From NCBI GenBank assembly GCA_048939765.1, contig JBHLPF010000017.1, forward strand, positions 1 through 64,000: a DNA stretch of 64,000 nucleotides, read 5' to 3'. The DNA comes from Promethearchaeota archaeon. GTDB taxonomy: Archaea > Asgardarchaeota > Thorarchaeia > Thorarchaeales > Thorarchaeaceae. This document shows positions 8,826-42,865 of the stretch, one piece after another; the stretch's first letter is position 1; the number at the start of each line of letters is the position of its first letter. Position numbers and translations under genes: made by a program. Below the pieces are notes generated by a model. The model searched no databases. It saw only the letters and a list, made by a program, of their open reading frames with translations, and was not told the DNA's origin.

Positions 8826-9749
8826 CTAGATGTATATCGTCCCAGTCATGACCAAGACGCCAGTCCCACTCACCTTGACAAGCTCGATGTTCTCCCTGTC
8901 ACCTCTGACTTCGACAAAGCTCCTTCCTGGACGACCAACGCTGTGGCCCTGCTCGATAATAATACTGGCAACTCCAAGAGTGTCGTCAACAATTCCATAT
9001 CTGATCAAATAGCTAGCCACGCAAGCTGCTGCTGCACCGCTTACGGGCTCTTCATTGACACCAAGTGAAGGAGCGAAATGTCTTACTTGAGCATCCGAAG
9101 TTTCATCATGTGTATCCCTAGTAAACACGCAGACTGACCCAAAATCAGCACCCTGCTGCAATTCAACTAGACGGTTCCAGTCACAGTCAATCTTCTCAAA
9201 GGCCTTCGATGTTGAGAGGGGTATGACGAGAATAGGAATACCAGTCGAAACTGTCTGCATTGGGACTAGACGGTCAATGTCCGCGAGAGTAAGGCCAAGT
9301 GCCTCATTGAAATCGTTCGGGTCGTAAGTATCAAGAAACCGCGGTCTCTGATGAGTGATTTGCACCTCATGCAACCGGGTGGTTTCGTTCTTCACGATGT
9401 CAGCCTGCAATAGACCTGCTTTGGTTTCGAAACTCACCATAGTTTCGTCCCTGTATATCTCCACGAGGCCTGCATGAATCAGGGCATGGAAGGCTGCTAT
9501 TGTTGCATGTCCTGAGAAATCTATCTCCCCTCTCGGGGTCATGTATCTGAAGCGGTGGTCAGCAACCTTCGACTTAAGGACGAAGACAGTCTCTCGGACA
9601 TTCATCTCTTGAGCTATCTTCTCCATGTCTTCGTCATTCAGACTCTCCGGAGCCAGAATGACTGCTGCAGGGTTCCCACCATAGGGTGTATCTGTGAAGA
9701 CATCAACCTGTAGTAGCTTGAGCTCACGCCTCTGATTCATAATGAACAT
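8826..9749 (-). CDS. PhzF family epimerase/isomerase
   Basis: VDVFTDTPYGGNPAAV, ETVF, EIDFSGHAT, EEPVSGAA, EQG motifs. Confidence 0.92.
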   Translation of the reverse strand: MFIMNQRRELKLLQVDVFTDTPYGGNPAAVILAPESLNDEDMEKIAQEMNVRETVFVLKSKVADHRFRYMTPRGEIDFSGHATIAAFHALIHAGLVEIYRDETMVSFETKAGLLQADIVKNETTRLHEVQITHQRPRFLDTYDPNDFNEALGLTLADIDRLVPMQTVSTGIPILVIPLSTSKAFEKIDCDWNRLVELQQGADFGSVCVFTRDTHDETSDAQVRHFAPSLGVNEEPVSGAAAACVASYLIRYGIVDDTLGVASIIIEQGHSVGRPGRSFVEVRGDRENIELVKVSGTGVLVMTGTIYI

Positions 9750-9816
9750 CCGACATCGAAAGGGGCTGGATGCTAATTAAGGATTTTATCTGGCATCATT
9801 TGAATGAATGGAAATT

Positions 9817-9955
9817 AGGAGGTGGCGAGCACGCGGGAAATCGTGGTAGGAGGGGGGAGTTTCGTAATTGAGGGCATGTAACGAAAAACTAGCCCACATG
9901 CTCGCCTTGCGTATATTACGGTGATGGATATGTCCCACACACCCACCTCGTCCAT
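9817..9955 (-). ncRNA. Candidate structured small RNA (family member A)
   Basis: 14-bp helix 9824-9837/9893-9906, perfect on - strand with two G-U pairs; inner UUUCGU/ACGAAA hairpin; TTTAATAA box at 9975-9982; shares motifs with 21316-21415. Confidence 0.55.
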
Positions 9956-10186
9956 GGCGTATTGCTGAGCTAACTTATTAAAGTTATGGCATGCGGACAG
10001 CACATCTTTTAAAGTATTCTTAAAGTCCGCCATAGAGTCGGATTTCGAGATTTTCGCAAAGCGCGCCCTTGTTGCATTCTTTGAACATTCTAGCACCTTT
10101 TCACCAAGTTGGAACTGAAAAGCAACAATGTGCTCAAAGCATCTGAATTGAACAAAAGGTGTTTCTTAAAGCAAAAACAGAATGAG

Positions 10187-10212
10187 GGATGAGGAGCAGT
10201 GCTCCTTCATCC
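10187..10212 (-). terminator. Hairpin followed by T-rich tract downstream of tes
   Basis: GGATGAGGAGC...GCTCCTTCATCC inverted repeat, then TGTTTTTG on - strand. Confidence 0.5.
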
Positions 10213-10225
10213 AGTCTTTGAAGGT

Positions 10226-11869
10226 CTATCCCTTATAGGGCTCTGAGATACTATCTTCCTCAACCTGGCTAGGCTTGTGCCTGCTCCTCCACTGATCCAA
10301 TGGCTGAGCGAACTTGTCCTCCAGCCTCGACCGGTGGATGGTGTTCATGGTGCAGAACGGAATAATCCTGCCATCAGGCGCTGCATAGTTGACATCGCAG
10401 TGTTGAACTCTCTCCAGATCCAGATTGTATGGATCCTGAAAATGCATCAGGCCTATCATGATAATCCTACGCATGAACTTCGCCAATGACTCGTAGTCGC
10501 CTCGATTGAGGAAAGCAGAGAGAAGGTCTTTGATGATTCCCTTCCTCTTGATATGCCTAGCACCAGCAGCAAGCTTGGCTTTCGCCCTTGCACTTGCGCC
10601 TCTCTTCTCCTGGGCAAAGAGATTGGATATGTCTTCAAGAAGCACGAGGAACTTGCTCACATCAATCAGATTGGTTATTGGCTCATAATCGCCGTCCTCA
10701 TTGATGTAGATGAATGTGGACATCCCACATGCAAAATGAGTGCTGAGCTCAAGTTGGGGAGTACCTTTCATGAGACCCAGGGCTCTACCTACGGGCATCA
10801 TCGCTGGAACCGGATACCATGCATCAAGCGGTATCTTTCCACCAGTCTGTTCCTCAATCAGATGGATGACATCGGGAATGGTGATTCTCATCTCGTTCCG
10901 TGCATTATGGTCAATGCGACCGGTGATGCTCACTGGCTGAAAGTTGACACAACGAATTACATCCCTGTTCTCAACTGCATACTCGATGATACCGCCAACT
11001 TGGTCGTCGTTCACACCTCTGACGACGGTTGGTACAAGAACCAGAGACTCCATCCCAATCTCTCGAGCATTCTGAATGGCTTGCTTCTTGATAGGCAACA
11101 AATTTGAGCCTCGTGCTGCGATGTAGGGATCTGGCGTAATGCCGTCAAACTGCATATACACCGTTGACAGTCCTGCGTCTCTGAGTTCCTGGAAATACTC
11201 CTTGCTCTTTCCAATCCTGATAGCGTTGCTCGCAATCTGGACGTGCCTAAAGCCCAACTCCTTGGCCCATCTTATGTACTGAGGTAGATGTTTGCTGACT
11301 GTTGGCTCACCACCAGCAAACTGAAGCGCAGGCGCCGGTACTGGCTCGTTGCTCCTGAGATTCTTCATCATGTCGAAGACTTCCTCAGGGGTAGGCTCGT
11401 AGACCGTTCCGCCTTCTGCAGCCACAGCAAAGCAGATTGGACATCTTAGATTGCATCTGTTCGTGACATCCAGAAGAGCCAGTGCAGTGTGTGATTTGTG
11501 TTCGGGACACTGTCCGCAGTCCTCTGGACATCCCTTTACTGTTTCAGTTCTGGGATTGTCTAGACCGACAGACTTGTACCACCACTTAGACGCCTCCCTG
11601 AACATCTTGGCGTCACCCCAATAAACGTCAATGAACTCGCCATGCTCATCACAGGTCTTCTTGTACATGACCTTCCCATCTTCTTCATAGAGCGTGGCGT
11701 CAATTACCTTAACATCATTATTTGTCAAGAAGCACTCAGGACAGATCGATTGTGTCTTGTAGGGAAGTTGCCTCTCGGGATACTTCTCTACCTGATACCT
11801 AGCATAACCGCCAGAATCCTCATGAGTGATGGGTTCCTCTGGAACCGGCTTGACTTCATCAGTTGCCAT
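10226..11869 (-). CDS. tes: Radical SAM tetraether lipid synthase (Tes/GDGT-MAS, MJ0619 family)
   Basis: N-terminal SICPEC...KTCDEHG, CPEDCGQCPEH, CNLRCPICFA radical SAM motif, HFACG, FQDPYNLDLERVQHC and IPFC C-terminal Cys. Confidence 0.88.
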   Translation of the reverse strand: MATDEVKPVPEEPITHEDSGGYARYQVEKYPERQLPYKTQSICPECFLTNNDVKVIDATLYEEDGKVMYKKTCDEHGEFIDVYWGDAKMFREASKWWYKSVGLDNPRTETVKGCPEDCGQCPEHKSHTALALLDVTNRCNLRCPICFAVAAEGGTVYEPTPEEVFDMMKNLRSNEPVPAPALQFAGGEPTVSKHLPQYIRWAKELGFRHVQIASNAIRIGKSKEYFQELRDAGLSTVYMQFDGITPDPYIAARGSNLLPIKKQAIQNAREIGMESLVLVPTVVRGVNDDQVGGIIEYAVENRDVIRCVNFQPVSITGRIDHNARNEMRITIPDVIHLIEEQTGGKIPLDAWYPVPAMMPVGRALGLMKGTPQLELSTHFACGMSTFIYINEDGDYEPITNLIDVSKFLVLLEDISNLFAQEKRGASARAKAKLAAGARHIKRKGIIKDLLSAFLNRGDYESLAKFMRRIIMIGLMHFQDPYNLDLERVQHCDVNYAAPDGRIIPFCTMNTIHRSRLEDKFAQPLDQWRSRHKPSQVEEDSISEPYKG

Positions 11870-11994
11870 GAATCATTCCACTCCATAGTCACTATATGGT
11901 ACCACCACTGAACAGGGTGGTATTTTGAACTCGGCTGCGAGGTTTTCGCAATATAACCTTTGTCCGAAACTTCCGAGTATGAAAAGGGGCATGG

Positions 11995-12306
11995 CTATTC
12001 TGACATCTTGAGGATGAATCCTTTATCGAATCCACCCCTCTCTTGGCGTTTCTTCAGTCGAATATCCTCAAGTGCTGCACGGCCGATTGATCGATGAACT
12101 AGAAGAGCTTCCAATGCTTCGAGGACGTCTGCAATCTCCTCATCCACTCCTGAATCTAGCAGTTCTTGAGATTCCTCTACTATTTTATGTCGGATGAGCT
12201 TGTCAAGTTCAGTTCCAGTAGCAATACGAACCTGTGGGTTCCCACCGTTTTGCCTAATGATCTCAGGAATCCTGTCACGAACCAGCTTCTCTGGCAATAT
12301 CTTCAC
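11995..12306 (-). CDS. MazG-like/phosphoribosyl-ATP pyrophosphohydrolase family NTP pyrophosphatase
   Basis: KLVRDRIPEII, EE..E, EEIADVLE, KRQERGGF motifs. Confidence 0.88.
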   Translation of the reverse strand: MKILPEKLVRDRIPEIIRQNGGNPQVRIATGTELDKLIRHKIVEESQELLDSGVDEEIADVLEALEALLVHRSIGRAALEDIRLKKRQERGGFDKGFILKMSE

Positions 12307-12318
12307 CTTATACCTAAG

Positions 12319-12987
12319 TCAAAGGACAAGTGCAGTTTCAACTTGATAACGAGCTTCAGCCAGAAATGCATCGATGGCGATTCCAAGGTCATCAGGTATC
12401 TCTGTAGTCCATGGTTCCTCAGCATCTCGTGCCATAGACTCAGTCATAGCACTGAAAGGGAGATACTTTGGGGTGAGTGTTTTGTCAAAGGAAACCGTGC
12501 CTATCCACTGGCCGTTGTGGATGACTTCGTATGTTGGCTGGTATTTCCTCAATGAATCAGGAACAATTGCATTCCAAAAGAAAGACATCCCATTGAATTG
12601 CCCGGGCTTCCCAAGAGCGATGGTATAGGTATCCATAGTGGCCTTTGCAGACTCCAAATCGTAGAGAATGCCAATGCGACAATTCAGGCATTGATTGAAC
12701 TCGAGACCATCGCCGTTCGGTTTCACATAAGCGATGCCATTCTTCTCAATATTGTCGTCATTACAATGCACACACAAGTCCATTCCCCATCGAACTTCAA
12801 GATGATCCGCAAAAGGTCCTTGGAGGAATCGAACTCTGGCTTCTTCAAAAGCGGTTCGAACTGCGTCCTCACCTTCGTTGTCCATCTTCTTTCGAATAAC
12901 GCTCCAGACTTCAAGAAGGTCTTGCCAAAGGACATTCAGTACCATGTCCGCGAGCTTGTCTAAAGGCCTGTCTTCAAGTGAACTCAT
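12319..12987 (-). CDS. Hypothetical protein with two CxxC pairs
   Basis: 222-aa ORF, CVHC and CLNC; RBS-like GGGTGA upstream; co-oriented with MazG-like gene. Confidence 0.7.
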   Translation of the reverse strand: MSSLEDRPLDKLADMVLNVLWQDLLEVWSVIRKKMDNEGEDAVRTAFEEARVRFLQGPFADHLEVRWGMDLCVHCNDDNIEKNGIAYVKPNGDGLEFNQCLNCRIGILYDLESAKATMDTYTIALGKPGQFNGMSFFWNAIVPDSLRKYQPTYEVIHNGQWIGTVSFDKTLTPKYLPFSAMTESMARDAEEPWTTEIPDDLGIAIDAFLAEARYQVETALVL

Positions 12988-13271
12988 ATCCTTAGATCAC
13001 CCTCGACTTCTTGATTACAGGAACTCTTCCATCGCAAGTGGCAATTAAGTCTTGGTCGTTTCAAGGTGCCAATATGAAGGTCAAGTATGGTTAGCCTAAG
13101 CTTTTTAACGGGGTCGGATGCAGGGAGGAGTACTAAAGGTGGACAAGGATGGATTGCCAAATTCACTAACACATGTGAAACTCAACGTAGTCCATTCTCT
13201 GATTGCGAACCTGTTCGGCTTTTGAAGAATTCTAGCTGCATGGATAATCAGTACAGGAGTCGGTGATATAG

Positions 13272-16200
13272 ATGTTCGAGCCAGTACCCAATCAAGTTGA
13301 TTTCGTTGCGCAGGAATATGAGACACTTAGGTTTTGGGAAGAGAAGCAGATCTTTGAGAAGCTGAGGAGATTGAGGGCGAAAGGCCCGATATGGTCCTTT
13401 ATTGATGGTCCTATCACTGCCAACAATCCTATGGGCGTTCATCATGGATGGGGACGAACATACAAGGACCTATACCATCGATTGAAAGCGATGCAGGGGC
13501 ATCATACACGCTATCAGAATGGCTTTGATTGTCAGGGACTCTGGGTTGAAGTCAACGTTGAACGAGATATGGGTTTCAGGGGCAAGCAAGACATAGAAGA
13601 CTATGGATTGGAGAAGTTCATCATATTGTGCAAGCAGCGGGTCTTGAAATATGCTGGAGTTATGACAGAGCAAAGCAAACGTCTAGGTTTTTGGATGGAC
13701 TGGGACAACCTGGAGACTCTGAAGACACTACATGATGCTCTTGATGATAATCCAGTGGCAGTGATGACTCTCGAGGGTGTTGAAGGTCCAGTTACTGGCA
13801 CGGTTGAGCAGCTCGTAGGAAGACTTGGTATGCCTGAACTTGGCGGATCATACTTCACATTCTCAGAAGAGAACAACTATACTATATGGACTGTGCTGAA
13901 GTCATGTCACGATAGAGGATGGATATACAAGGGCAGAGATGTCATGCCCTGGTGCGCTAGGTGTGGTACAGCCATCAGCCAACATGAAATAGTGACTGAA
14001 GGCTATCGCGAGCTGACTCATCCTAGCATAACGTTGAGATTCCCTTTGTTGGATCATGCGGGTGAAAGTCTCTTGGTATGGACAACGACTCCTTGGACTC
14101 TAAGCAGTAATGTGGCAGCTGCTGTTGGTCCCGAACTGACCTATGTCAAGGTTCGCCAGGGAGAGGAAACATTCTACTTAAGCCGTGGGACTCTGCATAT
14201 GTTGAAGGGCGACTATGAAGTCGAGGAGGAGCTGCTTGGCTTTGACATGGAGGGCTGGGTCTATCATGGCCCCTTTGATGAGCTACCAGCTCAAAAAGAG
14301 AGCGGAGTTTCAGGAAAGCACAAAGTGATACTGTGGGATGAAGTGGGAGAAGAGGAAGGAACTGGTATAGTGCACATTGCTCCTGGATGCGGAGCTGAGG
14401 ACTTCCAACTCTCCAAGGAGTTTGACCTTGTCGCAATAGCGCCTCTTACAGAAAATGGCATCTTTATCGATGGGTTTGACTGGTTGTCGGGGATGAGTGT
14501 CAAGGAAGTTGCCCAGCCAATCTTTGACAATCTGACTGAGAAGGGATTGACATACAAGGTTGAGGACTATACGCATCGATATCCTGTGTGCTGGCGTTGT
14601 CAGGAAGAATTGGTCTTTCGTCTTGTTGATGAGTGGTTCATATCCATGGGGACCAAACTTGACGTACCCTATGAGGAGGTCACGGATGAGCAGAAAGACG
14701 CCAATCTCCGTTATCAGATAATGGAGGTAGTTACTGATGAAACCAACTGGCACCCCTCATTTGGAAAAGAGAGAGAGCTAGATTGGCTGCGGAACATGGA
14801 TGACTGGATGATCTCCAAGAAACGATATTGGGGCCTTGCACTGCCCATATGGGAGTGTGCGAGCTGCAGTCATTTCGAAGTGATAGGCAGCAGAGAGGAA
14901 TTGAAAGAACGTGCTGTTGTTGGCTGGGACTCCTTCGAAGGTCATTCACCTCACAGACCATTCATCGATGAAATAGAGATAGAATGTGGTGAATGCGGCC
15001 AGAGAATGAAACGAATACCGGACGTGGGTAATCCCTGGTTGGATGCAGGAATAGTAGCAATGAGTACAATGAGGTACAACTCAGATAGGAAGTATTGGAA
15101 CAAGTGGTACCCGGCAGAACTCATCAGCGAGAGTTTTCCAGGTCAATTCAGAAATTGGTTCTATAGCCTACTCGCAATGAGCACGATACTCGAACGCAAA
15201 GCACCATTCAGGCATGTCTTCACCTATGCAACTCTGACGGCTGAAGATGGGAGAGAGATGCACAAGTCATGGGGGAATATGATAGAGTTCAATGAAGCTG
15301 CTGATTCAATGGGTGTGGATGTGATGCGATGGCTCTTTTGTACTCATAAACCTGAAAAGGACCTTGCCTTTGGGTATTCTCGAGGCGACGAAGTACGACG
15401 GCATTTTCTCATCCCTCTTTGGAATGTCTATTCATTCTTTGTCACATATGCACTCATAGACGGGTGGGTTCCCAAGACGGACCTGAAGACCTCGCCTAGC
15501 TTGCTAGACCGATGGATACTCTCCCGGATGAATGAGGTTACTCGAGATGTCACTGCGTATTTGGAGTCATACGAACCTAACATGGCGGCAGCTGTTGTAG
15601 ACCGATTCATAGATCATCTGAGTAACTGGTATCTCAGACGAAGTCGTCGCCGCTTCTGGGTAGAAGCCGGGTCGAGTGATGAGGAAGATGCTGACAAGAA
15701 TGCGGCTTATGATACATTATATCGAGTCTTAGTGACCCTCTCTCGATTGCTAGCACCATTTGTACCGTTCGTGTCTGAAGTCATACATCAGAATTTAGTC
15801 CGTAGCGTGGAGTCAGGTGCACCAGAGAGCGTACATCATTGCGATTGGCCCTTGAGCGATTCTGTTGATGAGGAGCTTAACAGCGAGATGGCGCTTGTAC
15901 TTAGATTGGTTTCTTTGGGACATGCAGCAAGAAACCAGGCAAATCGCAAGCTTCGACAACCATTGTCTGAGATAGCATTTGCTGTTGGAATGGACAAGGA
16001 GCGAGATGTCGTTATGCGCTATGCAGATTTGGTGGGGGATGAATTGAATGTCAAGCATGTTCGATTATTGGATGTTACTGGAGAAGTAGTGAGCTATCAG
16101 CTAAAACCGCTTCCAAAGCAACTGGGTCAGAAGTACGGCTCTCATTTCCCTGCACTTAGAAATGCAATACTCGGTCTAGATCCCCGTGAATCGTCGACAC

Positions 16201-16625
16201 ATCTTCAGGCTGGCGAATCCATTGAAGTAGAGGTGAACGGTGAGAAATTCGAGATACTACCTGATGAAGTCGAAGTCATAGTTGAAGCTAAAGAGGGCTT
16301 TTCGACAGCATCCGAGGGAGGATATCTTGCTGCCCTGACTACCGAGTTAACGCCGGAACTGGAACTTGAAGGATTGGCAAGAGAATTTGTGAGACGGGTT
16401 CAAAACGTACGCAAGTCAGCCGATCTGAATGTTAATGATAGGATAGACATTCAGTATTCCTCAAGCAGCCGATTGGCGGAGGCGGTTGAGTCTCATCAGC
16501 AATATATCACAGAAGAAACACTAGCGAATAGCTTGAAACAGGCGAAGAAACCTGCTGGAGATTACCGAGAGGAATACAAGTTTGGCGACGAGAATCTTAT
16601 GATAGCGATAGCTCTTAGTGAATAG
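13272..16625 (+). CDS. ileS: Isoleucine--tRNA ligase (type 2) with GVHH/EMHKS signatures
   Basis: DGPITAN, GFDCQGL, VWTTTPWTL, GTGIVHIAP editing domain, DWMISKKRYWG, type-2 C-terminus EGLAREFVRRVQ. Confidence 0.96.
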   Translation: MFEPVPNQVDFVAQEYETLRFWEEKQIFEKLRRLRAKGPIWSFIDGPITANNPMGVHHGWGRTYKDLYHRLKAMQGHHTRYQNGFDCQGLWVEVNVERDMGFRGKQDIEDYGLEKFIILCKQRVLKYAGVMTEQSKRLGFWMDWDNLETLKTLHDALDDNPVAVMTLEGVEGPVTGTVEQLVGRLGMPELGGSYFTFSEENNYTIWTVLKSCHDRGWIYKGRDVMPWCARCGTAISQHEIVTEGYRELTHPSITLRFPLLDHAGESLLVWTTTPWTLSSNVAAAVGPELTYVKVRQGEETFYLSRGTLHMLKGDYEVEEELLGFDMEGWVYHGPFDELPAQKESGVSGKHKVILWDEVGEEEGTGIVHIAPGCGAEDFQLSKEFDLVAIAPLTENGIFIDGFDWLSGMSVKEVAQPIFDNLTEKGLTYKVEDYTHRYPVCWRCQEELVFRLVDEWFISMGTKLDVPYEEVTDEQKDANLRYQIMEVVTDETNWHPSFGKERELDWLRNMDDWMISKKRYWGLALPIWECASCSHFEVIGSREELKERAVVGWDSFEGHSPHRPFIDEIEIECGECGQRMKRIPDVGNPWLDAGIVAMSTMRYNSDRKYWNKWYPAELISESFPGQFRNWFYSLLAMSTILERKAPFRHVFTYATLTAEDGREMHKSWGNMIEFNEAADSMGVDVMRWLFCTHKPEKDLAFGYSRGDEVRRHFLIPLWNVYSFFVTYALIDGWVPKTDLKTSPSLLDRWILSRMNEVTRDVTAYLESYEPNMAAAVVDRFIDHLSNWYLRRSRRRFWVEAGSSDEEDADKNAAYDTLYRVLVTLSRLLAPFVPFVSEVIHQNLVRSVESGAPESVHHCDWPLSDSVDEELNSEMALVLRLVSLGHAARNQANRKLRQPLSEIAFAVGMDKERDVVMRYADLVGDELNVKHVRLLDVTGEVVSYQLKPLPKQLGQKYGSHFPALRNAILGLDPRESSTHLQAGESIEVEVNGEKFEILPDEVEVIVEAKEGFSTASEGGYLAALTTELTPELELEGLAREFVRRVQNVRKSADLNVNDRIDIQYSSSSRLAEAVESHQQYITEETLANSLKQAKKPAGDYREEYKFGDENLMIAIALSE

Positions 16626-16659
16626 CAGGAACCAGTTGATGAGATGCTTGAAACAGGGG

Positions 16660-18021
16660 TCATAGCCCTCCTGGCTTTCTCAAGAGAACATCAATCAGGG
16701 TGTGATAGAAATCAGCGTTCTCCTTTATTGAGGAAATCGATACCCACTCGTTGGGCCCGTGGGTGTTACCACCACGAGGGCCAAAGTCGAATAGCTCGCA
16801 CCCCTCTCCGGCAAAGAAACGAGAATCAGATGCGCCATATCCCTCTATCACTCTGTACGGGATCTGTTCCTTCTCAAGTGCCCAACGTGCGGCTCGTATC
16901 AGGCGGGAATTTGGATCAGTGTCGACATACCCGACGCCAGGGCTCACACGTAATGAGAATAGATTAACACGTCCTTCCAATGCTCTCTGGATAGCCCTCT
17001 CCACAGCCTCTCCGTCATTTGTCATTGCACGAATATCACAATAGAGAGACCAGAGGTCACCCTCAATGGATAACAGATTGGGCGAGATTATTCTCCCGTG
17101 GTCTGAATATTCAGTTGAGAAGGCCGCATTTGATAGGGGAAGAAGTGCTCTCATAAGTCCAGTCAGAGCTTCATCATACTCTGACTCCGGTTGTGACTCA
17201 TCAGGATGGAGGAGGTCAACCTCAATCCATCCAGGTACGACATTTGATTTCAGGAAAGCTCCTCTAACATCCTTCACGACAGTATATGGATTTACATCAA
17301 GATATTTGGAGGCGGCTAGCATCGCATGCCGATCTACACTTGGCCGCATGTAGGCTGAGTGGCGGGATGTTGAGCCGAAAACATCGGTTTCGAATCTAAT
17401 CGTTTCTGCTCGGCCTCGCATCTTGGCCATTGACTTCTTTGCCTTGATGTAGGTGGGCAAGACATTCCGTCGCCGATGAATGATTTGCTGACCAACGCTA
17501 TCAGCTATGACTACATAATCTGGAAAAAGGCCCTGCTTGACTAGATGTTCCTTGAGCTTGAATGCCCCATTTCTGCCTCCAATCTCCTCATCCCCACTAG
17601 CAGCGATGGTAACAGTACACGGAAAGGCACTCTCTTTCAGTCTATCCGCCAAGAGAAGAAGTGACACAATATTCCCCTTATTGTCGGATGAGCCTCGGCC
17701 ATAGGCGATATCTCCATCAACACGGAGCTTGAAGGGATCAGACTCCCATCCTTCACCCACAGGTACGACATCAAAATGGGCTAGGAAGAGAATTTTGAAC
17801 TCACCCTGGCCATAGCGCCCATAGACCGTATGATAGCCCTCAAATTCGATTATTTCTGAGATAAGCCCAGCTTCTTCAAGTCTACTACCGATATACTGTG
17901 CGCAGTCTAGGTTTGCTCTTTTATCCAGTGGATCACTTATTGTCTGAAATGATACCAATGTTTCCAGTTCTTCTACAACATCCCCGTTCATTGCACTTGA
18001 CCATGCCACATGGCTGGACAA
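16660..18021 (-). CDS. M20/ArgE-DapE family metallopeptidase
   Basis: AHFDVVP, GRGSSDNKG, DEEIGG, HGPNE. Confidence 0.9.
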   Translation of the reverse strand: MSSHVAWSSAMNGDVVEELETLVSFQTISDPLDKRANLDCAQYIGSRLEEAGLISEIIEFEGYHTVYGRYGQGEFKILFLAHFDVVPVGEGWESDPFKLRVDGDIAYGRGSSDNKGNIVSLLLLADRLKESAFPCTVTIAASGDEEIGGRNGAFKLKEHLVKQGLFPDYVVIADSVGQQIIHRRRNVLPTYIKAKKSMAKMRGRAETIRFETDVFGSTSRHSAYMRPSVDRHAMLAASKYLDVNPYTVVKDVRGAFLKSNVVPGWIEVDLLHPDESQPESEYDEALTGLMRALLPLSNAAFSTEYSDHGRIISPNLLSIEGDLWSLYCDIRAMTNDGEAVERAIQRALEGRVNLFSLRVSPGVGYVDTDPNSRLIRAARWALEKEQIPYRVIEGYGASDSRFFAGEGCELFDFGPRGGNTHGPNEWVSISSIKENADFYHTLIDVLLRKPGGL

Positions 18022-18093
18022 ATATCCATCGATGTAGAGATATGAAAAGAAAGTGGTGGAGCGAAGACCAGCTGGTCGTCGCTCATGGTCATT

Positions 18094-20307
18094 CTAGGTT
18101 CGTTTGTAGATCCATCGACTCCAAGAGCCTATAGATGGCATTTCCTCCGGCATACCTTTCCTTGCTCGAATCTCCAGAATCTTCTCTTCCTGCATATTTC
18201 CAGGGACTGGTTCAAAGCCTCGAAACTCGTAACCGAAGAAGCTTCTACCGGCAGCAGCACTGCGAAATTCATCTGCAATGCCAATTGTTTCCGCTGTCGG
18301 TAATGTGCCTCTGATTGTGACTGTGTCTTCCTCAGCCTCAATCGTAACAATCTGACCTCGATGACCAGTAAGCACTTTGATGATGCCCCCCTGCGTGTCA
18401 GTTGGAGTCTTGATGTCCGCATTCAGAATTGGCTCGTAGAGACCTGAAGCCCCAGTGAGGAAGCTCATGTTAAGACCAGAGCTGGTCATCGTAGCGACCT
18501 CGTTGTAGCCAGTGTGCGCAGGATCAGTGTGAACTGTTGCATCTGTAAGGACTACCTTCACACCCATGACGGGCTCTCTTGCTATCGGTCCTTGGTCTAT
18601 GAACTCACGAAATGTGGTCTCGAGATATGAGTAGATTCTGTCGAATCGCTGCACACCGCTCATGGCATCAACAAGCATGCTTGATTCGTAGATATCCAGA
18701 ATCTTGCGGGCTTCCTTCGCATCCCATCCTGCCTCGTCACGGAGAATGGCTGCACGCTCGCGCGAGTTCATGTCCCTCGTAATCCGCTTTTTCCTGATGA
18801 GCTCAATAGCCTTCTCATCTAGGGGCTCTACATACAGTCTTAGACGATTATGACCGTTTGGAGATTTGGTGTGGAACTCTTGGCCACGTTCAGTAATCTT
18901 CTCACGATAGACAATGATTGGCTCAGATATGATGATCTTCACCTGTTCATTGATACGTTTGGTCAGAATCTCAATTTGAAGAGGGTCAATCCCATCCAGT
19001 CTGTATTCTCCGGACTCCTTGTCGTGAATGAATCTCGCTGTTGGGTCAGCCATGATCCACTTTGAAACGACCTCACCTAGCTTCGCGATGTCCTGAGGAT
19101 CAACTGGCTTGATGCTTCTGCTGACTACAGGTTCGCTTACATATTCAATGGCTTCAAAGCCATGCATCTCAGAGTCCACTGCTACAAAAGACTCTCCGGA
19201 TGGACACATAAATCCGAACACAGAGAAGAGATTCCCTGCTGGAACTTCTTCCATTGGCAGAATGTCAGTAATCTCTTGTACGCCAAGTCGTTTCACAGTG
19301 ACGCTTTTCCTCATGTTGACAAGACGGATTGACTGTCCTGATTTCACAGTACCTGAGAAAACTCTACCAATCAGTGTGGGCCTCTTGCTCTTTGGGTCGA
19401 CAAAGATCTTGGTGATCATTCCGAGTAGCGGGCCTTTGCGATCACACTCAAGAAGTGCCTTGCCTTCTGTGCTGTCAAGATCACCTTTCCAGATTCTCGG
19501 AATCTTGTAGGCTTGTGCTTCCTTTGGGTTGGGGAGGTGGTGTACTATCATCTCAAGAAGGGCATCATCCAGTGGGAGGTTCTCACGAAGCCACATCTCG
19601 TCGCCCTCGTTGTATTTCTCGAATACTACTTTGGCAGGAACACCTTTCTTTGCGAGCGTCTTATTTGTGAAAGCCCAACCGGTCTTTGCGCTTCCAATTG
19701 CAACACTGCCTTCCTCAAAGTTGACTCTCCATTCCTTTGCATATTCAGGAGGAGCAACTTTCTTGATGAGTTCATTGACCTTTGAAGCTATGATGACAAG
19801 TCGCTCTCCAACCTTCTCAGGGGGGAGCTTCAACTCATTGATCAATCTGTCCACTTTGTTAATGAAGAGGACTGGCTTGCATGCCTCGCCGCCTACTGCA
19901 AGTCGGATGTTCGTTTCAGTCTGCGTCATGACTCCCTCAAGTGCATCAACCAGAATGACGGCACCATCACTAGCGCGCAATGCACGTGAAACTTCTCCTG
20001 TGAAAGAGAGGTGTCCAGGCGTATCGGACAGCTGTACTAAATACTCTTCTCCATCAACTTCGAAGTTTAGCAGAACAACAGAGGTGAAGATCGTGATTCC
20101 TCTTTCCTGCTCCTCGTCGTCACTGTCTGTCATAAGAGCCTGCCCAGCGGCTGCGTCACTCATGAGACCTGCACGGCGCATCAGATAGTCTGTTGTTGTT
20201 GTCTTGCCGTGATCGATGTGAGCGCTGATAGAGATGATTCTCTTATGCTCATAGTCATCTGACATTATTAGTCTCTTAATTGCGTCTGGGTCCTTTATCT
20301 TGACCAA
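18094..20307 (-). CDS. Elongation factor 2 family GTPase, probably the archaeal paralog aEF-2p
   Basis: AHIDHGKTT, ERGITI, DTPGH, NKVD; domain IV KSPNGHNR; loop HTDPAHTG instead of HxDxxHRG; not in the str operon; TTG start with AGGTGA RBS. Confidence 0.9.
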   Translation of the reverse strand: MVKIKDPDAIKRLIMSDDYEHKRIISISAHIDHGKTTTTDYLMRRAGLMSDAAAGQALMTDSDDEEQERGITIFTSVVLLNFEVDGEEYLVQLSDTPGHLSFTGEVSRALRASDGAVILVDALEGVMTQTETNIRLAVGGEACKPVLFINKVDRLINELKLPPEKVGERLVIIASKVNELIKKVAPPEYAKEWRVNFEEGSVAIGSAKTGWAFTNKTLAKKGVPAKVVFEKYNEGDEMWLRENLPLDDALLEMIVHHLPNPKEAQAYKIPRIWKGDLDSTEGKALLECDRKGPLLGMITKIFVDPKSKRPTLIGRVFSGTVKSGQSIRLVNMRKSVTVKRLGVQEITDILPMEEVPAGNLFSVFGFMCPSGESFVAVDSEMHGFEAIEYVSEPVVSRSIKPVDPQDIAKLGEVVSKWIMADPTARFIHDKESGEYRLDGIDPLQIEILTKRINEQVKIIISEPIIVYREKITERGQEFHTKSPNGHNRLRLYVEPLDEKAIELIRKKRITRDMNSRERAAILRDEAGWDAKEARKILDIYESSMLVDAMSGVQRFDRIYSYLETTFREFIDQGPIAREPVMGVKVVLTDATVHTDPAHTGYNEVATMTSSGLNMSFLTGASGLYEPILNADIKTPTDTQGGIIKVLTGHRGQIVTIEAEEDTVTIRGTLPTAETIGIADEFRSAAAGRSFFGYEFRGFEPVPGNMQEEKILEIRARKGMPEEMPSIGSWSRWIYKRT

Positions 20308-20448
20308 TTGCTTTCACCTTATTTGCGAATAGTCTGACCCCAACTCCAAAGTCATAGTTCCGGGAGAACTAGGTCAGGGTCAACCGAAGGCCTCGGTGGC
20401 TAGCGCGGAGAGCCTTATAGATTCTTAAAAGATTATCGTCATAGGACC

Positions 20449-21234
20449 CTATTTTGTGGCTACTACAACCATACGCTCAGAATTTGCGGCATATGGCATC
20501 TTCGGAAGTTTGTTTTGCCCGTAGAGTTCGCTCCTGGAAAAGCCCACCTGTCTTAGGAGATCGCGAATTTCAAGTGCAGTGTACATTCGGATGTCGTTGC
20601 CAGCGAGTGCATCCTCATTCATCTCGATTATGCGGCCATTAGCCACATCAATGAATGATGCTGGCCGTCCTCTCAGAACTCCCGCTGGTGCATCGAGTAC
20701 ATGAGGCTCACTTAACAGATAGCCATCTTCTAGCTTTGTCCATGTCTTATGGAAACGCGGAAGATTGTAGGGATTCATCAGGTCAAGCAGAAGCTTCCCG
20801 CCTTCGACGAGCGCATTGAATGACCCCTCAAGAACACGCTTGTTCTCATCATGATTGAAAAAGCCAAAGCTGTGACTCAGAAGCACTGCAGCATCAAACT
20901 GGCTTGGAAAATCAATCTCCCTCATGTCACCCATTGAGAGATTCACCTCAAGATTGGCCTCAGCTGCCTTCTCCTTAGCAATTTTAATCAGCCTTGTTGA
21001 AAGGTCGAATCCAGAAACATTGATTCCGCGTTCTGCAAAAAGGATGCTCTGATCACCGGCTCCACAGGCTATGTCGAGCAGCTTCTTTCCTTTCTTCAAG
21101 CTCAAGGCATCCAGGCAGAATTCAACTACCATCTCATCATATTGTTGAATTCCCGGAATGATTTGACGATATTTGACCCTGAACACTTCAGCCCAGAATT
21201 CATCCCAGCCAAAATCAACGCGCTCCATGTTCAC
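20449..21234 (-). CDS. Class I SAM-dependent methyltransferase
   Basis: LLDIACGAG motif I, GDMR, FDAAV, SFGFF. Confidence 0.9.
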   Translation of the reverse strand: MNMERVDFGWDEFWAEVFRVKYRQIIPGIQQYDEMVVEFCLDALSLKKGKKLLDIACGAGDQSILFAERGINVSGFDLSTRLIKIAKEKAAEANLEVNLSMGDMREIDFPSQFDAAVLLSHSFGFFNHDENKRVLEGSFNALVEGGKLLLDLMNPYNLPRFHKTWTKLEDGYLLSEPHVLDAPAGVLRGRPASFIDVANGRIIEMNEDALAGNDIRMYTALEIRDLLRQVGFSRSELYGQNKLPKMPYAANSERMVVVATK

Positions 21235-21315
21235 TCACTTGGCGATTCTTCTAAGTGCAGGTTGATATGAAGCTTGTTATGAGAATGACAGCTATTGTCG
21301 TGATCGAAAAGCAGC

Positions 21316-21415
21316 AGGAGGTGGAGAAGACCCGCAGCCTGTTGATCTCCGCCGGGAGGGACGCAGACTGAAGCAACAGGAACACAAAGCGTGAACGCGG
21401 GCCTTGCGTCTCCAT
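21316..21415 (-). ncRNA. Candidate structured small RNA (family member B)
   Basis: Nested helices UGGAG/CUCCA, AAGGCCCGC/GCGGGUCUU, CCUGUUG/CAACAGG; possible GACGCA/UGCGUC pseudoknot; TTTATA at 21439-21444. Confidence 0.55.
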
Positions 21416-21584
21416 CGTTTTGAGACGGCCGTTTGGCCTATAAATCTATAGGTTTTCGCTAAAATGCGCGCGCTCTTCGAAAAATCGAAAGTTCTTTCTT
21501 TTAGTTTTATATAGCAAAAATCGAAGTCAAAAGTCCGCTTTTGGCTGAAGGAGAAATCTATTGAACGGAAACAGCGTAAAAGGG

Positions 21585-21660
21585 TGGTAGCCCCGCCAGG
21601 ACTCGAACCTGGGTCCAGTGGGCCAGAACCACTGATGCTGGACCGCTACACCACGGGGCT
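21585..21660 (-). tRNA. tRNA-Gln(CUG), CCA encoded, no intron
   Basis: AGCCCCG...CGGGGCT-A-CCA acceptor stem; anticodon arm AGTGG-TTCTGGC-CCACT; T arm CCAGG-TTCGAGT-CCTGG. Confidence 0.96.
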
Positions 21661-21758: not shown

Positions 21759-22652
21759 CTAAACGCCGACCTTGAAGATGAGCGAGTCCCTCAAGATGCG
21801 CTGAAACATCCTGAGGAGGTTCTTTCCTTCGGTGGCAACGGTGGCAAATACGGGATATCCTTCAAGCCCTAGCATCTGAATCATGCGGTCCACTGGGAGA
21901 GCATTTGGCAGGTCTCGTTTGTTCAGAGAAACCACGATGGGCAAGGTTGCCAGCCGATCGGTTCCAAGGGCGATTCGAAGCTCCTGAATCGAGGCCAGAT
22001 TCTCATTCATCTGCTCGGGTGTGGAGTCTGCCATGAATATCATGCCATCTACTCCTCGAAGAACGTTTATCCGCTGAGTAGCATGTCTTCGCTGACCCGC
22101 GACAGTAAAGACATCAAAAACCACCTTTTCACCAGCAGAAACAGGGATGAAGTCAAAGTAAGTAGTCCGACCAAGCTCGTCTGAGATTTCAACAATTCTG
22201 CCCTTAGCTAGAGCTCTCACATTGGCAAAGAGCCACCTGAGTGCAGTTGTCTTTCCGGAGAGAGATGGACCATAGAATACGATCTTTATATGGATGCGTC
22301 CTTCCTCATCGCGCTTCAATGCCTCGCCAGCGACAATTTCTGATACCGATTGAGGTCTGATTTGCGCGGCGCGCGCAATATTGGAGGTTGCTTCTTCATC
22401 AATCCTCAGCTCAGTTGTAGCTGTACTAGCCACAAGTGTTCCAGTTGGAAGCGGTTCACGCCGCCCCACGCGGGGGGTTTCGCGGGGCGCCATGAAGGGT
22501 TCTCCCGGTGCAACTTCAATCTCAACGGGAGGGGTCGTTTCACGAGGTTCTCCTAGGGGCTTACCTGATTCTGGAGCAGCATCTGGAGCCTCTTCTGCTT
22601 TCGGCTCTTCCTTCTTTTTGCCTTTGAATCGAGAAGCCAGCCTCCTGAGCAA
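21759..22652 (-). CDS. MglA-like small GTPase with about 115-aa disordered N-terminal extension
   Basis: IKIVFYGPSLSGKTT, GRTTYFDF, TVAGQ, NKRD. Confidence 0.88.
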   Translation of the reverse strand: MLRRLASRFKGKKKEEPKAEEAPDAAPESGKPLGEPRETTPPVEIEVAPGEPFMAPRETPRVGRREPLPTGTLVASTATTELRIDEEATSNIARAAQIRPQSVSEIVAGEALKRDEEGRIHIKIVFYGPSLSGKTTALRWLFANVRALAKGRIVEISDELGRTTYFDFIPVSAGEKVVFDVFTVAGQRRHATQRINVLRGVDGMIFMADSTPEQMNENLASIQELRIALGTDRLATLPIVVSLNKRDLPNALPVDRMIQMLGLEGYPVFATVATEGKNLLRMFQRILRDSLIFKVGV

Positions 22653-22763
22653 TTACAACCTCTCTCCGAAGATTTAGGGAGATGAAACCGGTCTTAAATC
22701 TTGGGGGGATTGTGTCCGCAGTGAGAGTGAGCTTTATCTGGTGCTTCAACTGGAAAACAAGGC

Positions 22764-23888
22764 ATGCCCGAAGTAATCGACTCCAATTTTGTCCAGAGGA
22801 TGTTCCCCACCTTATTAGATATGGCCTATCTCAACAATGCTGCAACTGGCATCCCACCTATGACATGTGTGACGGCCATGAAGGAGTATTTGGACGATAG
22901 AATCACGGCCAAGGGAGATTTTGATGAAACGCTTGAGAAAATAAAGGAAATTCGGGAACTCCTAGCGAATCTCTTGGGCGGAGCACGAAGAAACTTCGGG
23001 TTCATGCCTAACACTACATCTGGTGTAAACACGTTTGCTCACAGCATAGAATATCCTGGGGGCTCTAATGTGGTACTATGCGACCTAGAGTTTCCAGCTA
23101 ACTATATTCCTTGGCAGCATCTTTGTAGACAGCAAGGAGTGGAGTTGAGAGTTGTGAAGTCAAAGGAAGGGGCCGCTCCAACTGATGCCTTCAAGGAACT
23201 GGTTGATGAGAATACGAGAGTATTGGCAGTTAGCCAAGTGCAATTCGGTTCGGGATTTCGGTCAGACTTGAAGGCCCTTGCTGAGATAGTTCACGATATC
23301 GGAGGCTACCTCGTAGCTGACATCATTCAGGCTGCTGGATGGGCGGATACAAATCTTGTCAAGGAGGACGTGGATTTTGCGGCAGGACACGCACCAAAGT
23401 GGATGCTTGGCCCAATTGGAGCTGGCTATGTCTATGCGAGTGATAGTATTATGGAAGAGTTGACACCAAAGTATTTGGGTTGGTGGGGAGTCAAGGAATT
23501 CAGAGAGTTTGGGTACTTCGAGAGGGAACCATTTCCGGATGCGAAGATGTTCCAAATAGGGTCTCCAGCAATGATCGCGTATGTTGGACTGCTTGAATCT
23601 CTCCGGATGCTCACATCACTGCCAGCTAAGGAACGCGAAAGAAAGGCACTTGATAATGCGGACTATCTTCGGAAACGTCTTCGTGAGAAGGGTATTGAAT
23701 ACTACGAATTCGAGGAGAATCAGAGGTCGCCCATTGTTTCGTGTTCACCAGAAGATGTCGAAACCCTTGACAAGAAGCTAAAGAAGAATAGGATATACTG
23801 CTCAGTTCGTAACGGAAGACTCAGAGTTTCGCCGCATTTCTATAATAATGAAGCCGAGATTGATAGATTGGTGGAGTTTATGGGGTGA
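22764..23888 (+). CDS. Class V PLP-dependent aminotransferase
   Basis: YLNNAATG, NTTSG, DIIQAAG, PKWMLGP (PLP Lys), LRVSPHFYN. Confidence 0.9.
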   Translation: MPEVIDSNFVQRMFPTLLDMAYLNNAATGIPPMTCVTAMKEYLDDRITAKGDFDETLEKIKEIRELLANLLGGARRNFGFMPNTTSGVNTFAHSIEYPGGSNVVLCDLEFPANYIPWQHLCRQQGVELRVVKSKEGAAPTDAFKELVDENTRVLAVSQVQFGSGFRSDLKALAEIVHDIGGYLVADIIQAAGWADTNLVKEDVDFAAGHAPKWMLGPIGAGYVYASDSIMEELTPKYLGWWGVKEFREFGYFEREPFPDAKMFQIGSPAMIAYVGLLESLRMLTSLPAKERERKALDNADYLRKRLREKGIEYYEFEENQRSPIVSCSPEDVETLDKKLKKNRIYCSVRNGRLRVSPHFYNNEAEIDRLVEFMG

Positions 23889-42320: not shown

Positions 42321-42471
42321 TTAGGTTTCACCATCTAATTGGCAAATCATGGTTTATTTCCGATACTAAGATTAGCTTCGAATGCTATTTTAAAGCATTC
42401 ACGGTCAACCCTTCGTATTTGGCATTATGTTGCCTTATACAGAATTCTAACGTGGCAGAAACAGATAGACT

Positions 42472-42720
42472 GTGTTGGGACGCAGAGGCTCGCCAGGCGA
42501 CCCTCCGCATCCGTCGGGCCTTCAGGCTGAACGCAGCGAAAATTCTCTTTGCGCAAGTATTGTTTGCAAGGGGATTCATCCTCTTGAAGCGCATGCTCCA
42601 AGAGTCCAATGCTAGAACTCGTAAGGGACCGTGTGTTGTGAATGCGAGTTCTTTTGACGGGGAAGTCGTGCGTTCCGCGACAAAGGCAGCCCACACCATA
42701 CGGTGCGGACCAACCGACAC
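42472..42720 (-). ncRNA. Candidate about 250-nt multi-hairpin structured RNA
   Basis: Hairpins 42689-42710, 42614-42652, 42581-42604 and 42478-42512; three rely on G-U pairs on the - strand; ends can pair. Confidence 0.55.
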
Positions 42721-42865
42721 CTTGATGCTGTAACATAAGAAGCTTTCTGGTTTCCGAAATAACGAATAGACGGTTCATGAACGGATAGTGGCCCCAAAAA
42801 AGGGTGTTTGACAGACCAGCATTTGCTGAGGGGTATAGAACATGAAGTGGATTACGAAACTCCGC

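Follow-up and report, generated by a model that had tools for sequence, protein, structure and literature searches.

The window analysed here comprises 64,000 nt (positions 1 to 64,000, forward strand) of contig JBHLPF010000017.1 from a Promethearchaeota archaeon of the Thorarchaeaceae (Asgardarchaeota; GenBank assembly GCA_048939765.1). Two of its intergenic regions hold structured elements that are read on the minus strand, that is, element A, between a radical-SAM gene and a PhzF-like gene, and element B, between a tRNA-Gln(CUG) gene and a SAM methyltransferase gene (Table 1). An initial annotation of this DNA had joined A and B into one small RNA (sRNA) family on the grounds of four colinear motifs (AUGGA, ACGCAAGGC, CCCUCC and a tail CCACCUCCU), the last of which resembles the anti-Shine-Dalgarno (anti-SD) sequence. 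All four motifs are indeed present in both elements, and both fold well, with helices backed by covariation in relatives. However, A and B are two separate families, not one. Each is predicted, from its conservation and anatomy, to be a genuine, stand-alone RNA gene with an archaeal TATA box. New here are the direct test of one family against two, the fate of the tail and a unique upstream element shared by the two loci.

Table 1. Positions of elements A and B, their parts and their flanking features in the window
Feature	Position	Strand	Remarks
Radical-SAM (HMPTM-type) gene	10226-11869	minus	flanks A
Upstream element common to A and B, ATTTCGAGATTTTCGCAAAGCGCGCCC	10040-10066	plus	inverted relative to A; kept in closest relatives only
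A gene TATA box CTTTAATAAG	9984-9975	minus	within ATAACTTTAATAAGTTAGCT; most positions identical in 7 genus members
AUGGA (A)	9955-9951	minus
A 5′ G-rich hairpin GGUGGGUGUGUGGGACAUAUCCAUCACC	9920-9947	minus	kept in genera g1, g9 and g10 only
ACGCAAGGC (A)	9912-9904	minus
Element A core	9906-9824	minus	member of a multi-copy RNA family
A clamp helix P1, 5′ strand GGCGAGCAUGUGGG	9893-9906	minus	covariation
A inner hairpin P2 (UUUCGU/ACGAAA), loop UACAUGCCCUCAAUU	9860-9886	minus
A unpaired C-rich tract CUCCCCCCUCCUACCA	9844-9859	minus	invariant in 29 aligned family members
CCCUCC (A)	9854-9849	minus
A clamp helix P1, 3′ strand CCCGCGUGCUCGCC	9824-9837	minus	covariation
CCACCUCCU tail (A)	9825-9817	minus
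A 3′ tail ACCUCCUAAUUU	9812-9823	minus	ACCU alone conserved; remainder variable, pyrimidine/U-rich, terminator-like
PhzF-like gene	8826-9749	minus	flanks A, downstream
tRNA-Gln(CUG)	21585-21660	minus	upstream of B, same strand
B upstream region	21463-21524	minus	two TCGATTTTT repeats and palindrome-like TTTTCG-N4-GCGCGCGC-N-CGAAAA
B gene TATA box TTTATAGG	21444-21437	minus	present at 30/32 B loci, many genera
Element B RNA	21416-21315	minus	full covariance-model match
AUGGA (B)	21415-21411	minus
ACGCAAGGC (B)	21409-21401	minus
B P1	GGAGA 21413-21409 with UCUCC 21327-21323	minus	followed by a 5-nt internal loop
B P2	GGCCCGC 21403-21397 with GCGGGUC 21335-21329	minus
B P3, variable arm	21396-21383	minus
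B P4, conserved arm	21380-21338	minus
CCCUCC (B)	21360-21355	minus
B apical hexaloop CCUCCC	21354-21359	minus	closed by C21360-G21353
CCACCUCCU tail (B)	21324-21316	minus
SAM methyltransferase gene	20449-21234	minus	flanks B, downstream

Element A: structure and family

A BLAST search of element A against its own genome returned a partial copy on a second contig, and a motif search returned a third copy. The three genes, i.e. A itself, an M-type copy (C74:11318-11413) and an S-type copy (C31:5393-5267), have a near-identical stretch of ~50 nt in common, while the inverted segments flanking it differ in sequence yet pair. The same architecture holds family-wide, namely a covarying clamp helix of 14-25 bp around a near-invariant loop of ~50 nt, whose least variable parts are UUUUCGU or a U-rich tract, ACAUGCCCUCA and ACUCCCCCCUCCUACCA. 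The paralog types are told apart by a spacer that reads AAUUACGAAA in A-type, UAA in S-type and UUACAYAA in M-type genes, and element A is the A-type paralog.

When the three paralog types were aligned together with MAFFT the helices were misaligned and RNAalifold gave a null result; the A-type was modelled first, and the members were then realigned with the model. Among 16 A-type orthologues, compensatory changes were found at 9 of the 14 pairs of the 14-bp closing helix P1. In the covariance-model alignment of 32 members of all types, 93.4% of the cells pair, as against 32-48% with a slid partner, and double (compensatory) changes occur at 18 of 20 pairs, both figures coming from an alignment that is biased towards the structure to which it was fitted. 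The G-U pairs of A and B are compatible with the minus strand only. Inside the A clamp, ACAUGCCCUCA and CCCCCCUCCUACCA do not vary among 29 aligned members covering the three types, and the C-rich tract includes CCUCCUA, a 7-mer that also occurs in the 16S 3′ end region (GAUCACCUCCUAAG). Other parts are less widely shared: the inner UUUCGU/ACGAAA hairpin is restricted to the A-type, and the G-rich 5′ hairpin lies between promoter and clamp in the A-type genes of three genera, those of the other genera being without it, with the promoter directly preceding the clamp. A GGGC/GCCC pseudoknot was considered for A and is unsupported, as its 5′ partner varies in two genera with the loop remaining fixed.

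The pattern ACATGCCCTCA-N0-14-CTCCCCCC occurs in 81 of the 86 genomes of the same GTDB family, with 1 to 8 copies per genome among the genomes listed, and the reversed control pattern had no match. A covariance model of the family (R2) scores element A at 107 bits (E 3e-26); it matches every one of the 26 family genomes sampled and the single sister-family genome sampled (1/1), and none of 123 genomes from 25 other Asgard families. In the sister-family copy, UGCCCUCA, ACUCCCCCCUCCUA, the U-tract and the clamp are all retained. Synteny is specific to the paralog type and is preserved across genera: A-type genes are flanked by the radical-SAM and PhzF-like genes at 13-16 loci, and S-type genes are divergent from an OsmC-like gene. 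Furthermore, a CTTAWTAGG box lies 21-22 nt before the helix in S- and M-type genes, including the copies of this genome. By its predicted structure and its distribution, the A family is an undescribed small RNA family found only in Thorarchaeota.

Copy number ranges from 1 to 9 per genome, the highest counts being those of G060 (9), G042 (8) and G006 (8), and several assemblies end inside A-family genes (e.g. G045:C13:1-68, G046:C7:1-68 and G042:C224:1-91). The genomes with 8-9 copies and the assembly breaks suggest that the family has expanded in some lineages and that near-identical copies disturb assembly. Two A-family genes of different types (L009:1460-1594, plus strand, and L014:1434-1559, minus strand) carry a similar inserted hairpin module (...GGGAUUACCC...CGGGGAA...), located between UCC and UACCA of the C-rich loop.

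Element B: structure and distribution

Element B consists of a closing stem with two internal arms, and the same structure was obtained for every one of 32 folded orthologues. The P2 consensus is GRCCCGY/RCGGGUC. In P3 the sequence changes among orthologues and the hairpin is retained, and the conserved arm P4 follows the consensus CCUGUUG ... GUCU-G-CGUC[CCUCCC]GGCG-G-AGAU ... CAACAGG, in which the bracketed hexaloop is apical; CCCUCCC is kept in 26 of 27 orthologues. Pairing is found in 94.7% of the cells of a MAFFT alignment (45-52% when slid), with 6 compensatory pairs, and in 97.4% of those of a model-fitted alignment (45-51% when slid), with 10 compensatory pairs.

BLAST with the intergenic region located the core of B (~60 nt, 21382-21320) in 66 of the 86 family genomes, usually ~11 kb from an A-type gene as in the window, a conserved gene order. 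Element B scores 99 bits against the covariance model built for it (R3). In a search with this model, all 26 sampled family genomes (26/26) had a single copy each, the sister family had none, and elsewhere there was only one match, at chance level (E 0.003). On these grounds B appears as an undescribed single-copy RNA family of ~100 nt, found in Thorarchaeota only. At 15 of 23 B loci, from many genera, tRNA-Gln(CUG) is located upstream of B on the same strand; the distance is roughly 150-300 nt (loci L043-L069), a stable linkage despite B's own TATA box. In the window, a weak R3 match at 22700-22816 (plus strand; 12.6 bits, E 0.14), in the interval that separates an Arf-like GTPase gene from its neighbour, has a closing helix and a CCCCACCUU tail and is probably due to chance.

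A and B are two families

The proposal that A and B are diverged members of one family, with four colinear motifs, a functional anti-SD tail and a common protein, is not without appeal. The motifs are all there, the layout is common (promoter, closing helix, exposed CCCUCC, and CCAC after the helix), both elements are confined to the same archaeal family, and in this genome they have a rare upstream element in common. Nevertheless, reciprocal covariance-model searches were negative: with filters off, the one match of R2 in the window was A, B remaining without a match even at E<=10, and R3 gave no match at element A or at 8 other A-family loci (nine A-family loci in all). The colinear motif chain is at chance level, being reached by dinucleotide shuffles in 165 of 300 cases for 5-mers and in 36 of 300 for 6-mers, and the best local alignment between A and B, which is the tail, was reached by 16 of 500 such shuffles. 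The motif 9-mers themselves are no evidence for one family either, since they occur at or below the expected genome frequency (ACGCAAGGC 12 times and CCACCTCCT 25 times, against ~26 expected). Moreover, ACGCAAGGC occupies different structural places, namely the flank and the foot of the helix in A and the internal loop and P2 in B. The folds differ as well, with a clamp helix around one large loop in A and a closing stem with two internal arms in B, which is without ACAUGCCCUCA and without the long C-tract; so do the copy numbers, with 1-9 per genome for A against exactly 1 for B. The one-family reading is thus largely refuted, and we regard it as very improbable. The earlier statement that A and B are not recent duplicates is supported.

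The fate of the individual motifs in orthologues points the same way. AUGGA is not kept in A orthologues even within the genus. The CCUCC of the 3′ tail is kept in just 4 of the 16 A-type orthologues and 2 of the 27 orthologues of B and is replaced within the genus by ACCUUUUAC or similar; with such variation it seems to belong to a pyrimidine/U-rich termination tract of variable sequence, and a functional anti-SD tail was rejected. The internal C-rich motif, CCCUCC in this genome, is the only one that orthologues of A and of B alike conserve. It is the internal unpaired loop, not the tail, that holds the conserved anti-SD-like sequence. What stands of the initial proposal of guide, scaffold or ribosome-binding-site (RBS)-pairing RNAs is that these are structured Asgard sRNAs, previously undescribed, which expose a CCUCC-type motif; their union into one family and the function ascribed to the tail do not stand.

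The shared upstream flank

The upstream flanks of A and B also share sequence in this genome, as first reported, and this likeness is unusual: the unit TTTCGA-N1-2-TTTTCG-N4-GCGCGC has only two sites in the 3.37-Mb genome, upstream of A (inverted) and of B; TTTCGA-N1-2-TTTTCG and GCGCGC-N2-8-CGAAAA occur nowhere in the 3.37 Mb but at the A and B loci; and the alignment score of the flanks was reached by only 1 of 500 shuffles. Elsewhere, however, the element is not a property of the A family, as it was found at 2 of 56 A-type loci (background ~0.003 per 300-nt window). A role as family-wide regulator site was ruled out, the element preceding A in the closest relatives only. TCGATTTTT recurs upstream of B in many other genera. 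The shared upstream element is not a feature of either RNA family, and it may be a transcription-factor site in this species group.

Independent transcription, and the alternatives of leaders, coding genes and mobile elements

A TATA-like box was confirmed above each AUGGA, at a distance of ~25-26 nt. Both RNAs lie upstream of a gene on the same strand, and they could be read as cis-regulatory leaders or riboswitch-like elements of the PhzF-like gene (A) and of the SAM methyltransferase (B). Such a reading would fit the A-type position upstream of the PhzF-like gene, on the same strand, at 13 of ~19 loci, the methyltransferase that is often downstream of B, and the combination of conserved unpaired nucleotides with covarying stems, which resembles riboswitches. 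However, between each RNA and the start codon of the gene downstream lies a conserved TATA-like box belonging to that gene, and a pyrimidine/U-rich, terminator-like tract follows each RNA. In addition, the M- and S-type paralogs display the same loop in unrelated contexts with no conserved downstream gene, and other genes are found downstream of B in several genera. We therefore consider a leader function highly improbable. The conserved TATA boxes ~25 nt upstream, together with the TATA-like boxes of the downstream genes themselves, argue instead for independent transcription.

The open frames at 9955-9815 and 21415-21251, which start from AUGGA and comprise 46 and 54 codons, could also suggest small protein-coding genes, and the genomes with 8-9 copies as well as the assembly breaks in A-family copies could suggest mobile-element remnants or ends. 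Against coding, the AUG start codons are not conserved, length changes in the spacer and C-run are not multiples of 3, the changes seen are compensatory in helices rather than synonymous, and there are no Pfam matches. Against mobility, the paralog types hold their respective syntenic positions, flanking repeats were not seen and viral contigs gave no matches; likewise, the presence of three A-family copies in the genome, the synteny kept across genera and the single copy of B are in line with the elements not being miniature inverted-repeat transposable elements (MITEs). Of all the alternatives, this one seems to us the least credible.

Comparison with known RNA families and systems

That neither element was recognised at first as a known family is corroborated by Rfam 15 (4227 models), which has no match to A or B. 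At the gathering score the only Rfam match in the window is tRNA-Gln, and at E<=10 the two intergenic regions contain only two chance-level CRISPR-repeat matches, both outside the elements. Several specific identities were considered and rejected. Signal recognition particle (SRP) RNA and RNase P RNA are both located elsewhere in the genome, and mimicry of SRP, RNase P or rRNA sites came down to matches of 7-10 nt. ARAGORN predicts only the tRNA-Gln, which excludes a tRNA-like molecule; as to an acceptor mimic, ACCU rather than NCCA follows the helix in most orthologues. H/ACA or C/D guide boxes were not seen on inspection, the triplet after the closing helix being ACC, ACA, ACU or AUU, and there is no Rfam snoRNA match. 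Pairing with rRNA was likewise rejected, the duplex energies of the conserved loops with the genome's own 16S and 23S rRNA being equal to those of shuffled loops.

The closest parallels may be in other archaea. The intergenic sRNA154 and sRNA41 of Methanosarcina mazei have anti-RBS loops that pair with ribosome-binding regions (PMC5867862). Like these, A and B would be stand-alone intergenic genes with stable stem-loops, an unpaired loop complementary to the RBS and lineage-restricted conservation. They have no sequence or structural homology to the M. mazei sRNAs and differ from them in several ways: the A loop is far longer and more invariant, the B loop sits in a structure that has two internal arms, and A belongs to a multi-copy family, divided into three stable paralog types. 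In bacteria, C-rich-loop sRNAs such as RsaE/RoxS pair with Shine-Dalgarno (SD) regions. The resemblance lies in conserved unpaired C-rich loop motifs and in the presence of several C-rich motifs or copies, whereas they belong to another domain of life and show no homology. Y RNAs of the Ro60 ribonucleoprotein are alike in that a long stem made from the 5′ and 3′ ends surrounds a large conserved loop, in size (~100 nt) and in the existence of several paralogs; however, their loop sequence is unrelated to that of A or B and there is no Rfam Y RNA match. A Y RNA identity was rejected, as a TROVE/Ro60 gene was found in 0 of 5 Thorarchaeota genomes, with a positive control in Deinococcus. Lastly, the 3′ end of 16S rRNA (helix 45 plus GAUCACCUCCU) has CCUCCUA in common with the invariant A loop and, in this genome only, CACCUCCU after the closing helix of both RNAs. 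The likeness extends over 7-10 nt only, that of the tail is not conserved, and neither RNA has a hairpin like helix 45.

Possible function of the exposed C-rich loops

Gene-like anatomy, structure, conservation, distribution and the non-identity of the two families, all established computationally, form the basis for regarding A and B as two independent RNA genes. As a whole, that they are separate, independently transcribed, Thorarchaeota-specific non-coding RNA genes is the best explanation we can offer, if a tentative one. With respect to function, the CCUCCC hexaloop of B and the CCUCCUA of the A loop are exposed anti-SD-like sequences, complementary to SD sequences in RBS regions. The two RNAs could act in trans, with exposed CCUCC-containing loops that copy the anti-SD core of 16S rRNA and that would pair with purine-rich GGAGG ribosome-binding regions of mRNAs, this pairing then changing translation or stability. 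The other invariant nucleotides of the A loop would probably contact a protein partner. The genome does use SD sequences: in a set of start sites that is itself approximate, GGAGG is ~5-fold enriched at -16 to -6, and ~18% of the starts carry a 5-mer SD. We consider this mechanism, including the pairing with purine-rich RBS regions, possible but on balance rather doubtful.

Several observations weigh against it. Genome sites complementary to the loops are not enriched, with 298 10-mer matches against ~295 expected, and at the approximate start regions the duplex energies equal those of the reversed query. The best candidate target, 12 nt at C10:6439-6453, was discarded, as it maps to an internal Met of a NifS/IscS-like coding region and lacks conservation. 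Some 28 invariant loop nucleotides in A exceed what a pairing seed needs, which points to a protein or a tertiary fold. Finally, the gene contexts (radical SAM/PhzF, OsmC/NAD synthase and tRNA-Gln/methyltransferase) have no functional theme.

The RNAs could alternatively be protein-bound scaffolds, sponges or decoys, whose invariant loops would bind a conserved protein, which the RNAs would titrate or deliver rather than pairing with mRNAs. Candidates would be KH-domain or other factors that read the CCUCC-containing 16S 3′ end, i.e. Dim2/Pno1 with aIF2-alpha, or Nob1. Protein- or ligand-binding RNAs typically have long invariant single-stranded tracts on helices that vary and covary, and three paralog types present the same loop on different helices and in different genomic contexts; the lack of enrichment of complementary targets and the identity of CCUCCUA with the 16S 3′ end motif would fit as well. 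An archaeal Dim2-like protein is on record as binding a 16S 3′ end fragment (Jia et al. 2010, as cited in PMC3326319). On the other hand, the paralog types have no conserved neighbour gene in common, the Ro60/TROVE partner was not found in the 5 Thorarchaeota genomes, and the candidacy of Dim2 depends on a likeness of 7 nt. Protein capture by the loops is accordingly a reading that we also hold to be unlikely. In a broader proposal, A-family and B RNAs would mimic the anti-SD end of 16S rRNA, holding CCUCC(UA) in a rigid clamp, and would either globally tune SD-dependent initiation or sequester factors of 30S maturation and initiation (Dim2/Pno1-aIF2-alpha, Nob1). We regard this proposal as improbable.

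Other observations in the window and genome

A third conserved element free of open reading frames lies at 42321-42865 (minus strand), where ~330 nt are 78-92% identical across the genus. Three further genera share its 50-nt core (42662-42610), which has a hairpin GAACUCG...CGAGUUC. The element is without a match in Rfam at E<=10, is distinct from the SRP and RNase P RNAs, both encoded on other contigs, and contains UCUGCGUCCC, as does B. At 21759-22652 (minus strand) lies a gene for a protein of 297 aa that contains a small GTPase domain of the Arf/Ras family; proteins of this kind are typical 'eukaryotic signature' proteins of Asgard archaea. The SRP RNA of the genome (G000:C12:26313-26623) scores 87.9 bits against the Rfam Archaea_SRP model, the gathering score of which is 96.5; standard annotation would therefore miss it.

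Significance

Among known prokaryotes, Asgard archaea are the nearest relatives of eukaryotes; our literature searches found no paper on Asgard small RNAs. The present analysis corrects an attractive but wrong merger of two families, and the covariance models R2 and R3 can be used to annotate both. It points to two strongly conserved, promoter-equipped RNA genes that are without database description and are present throughout Thorarchaeota. Their invariant, exposed C-rich loops lead to a directly testable hypothesis, namely that they either base-pair with ribosome-binding sites or capture a factor by which the 16S 3′ end is recognised. Mimicry of the 16S end, if true, would mean that an Asgard archaeon has a layer of translation control that is made of RNA and specific to its lineage.

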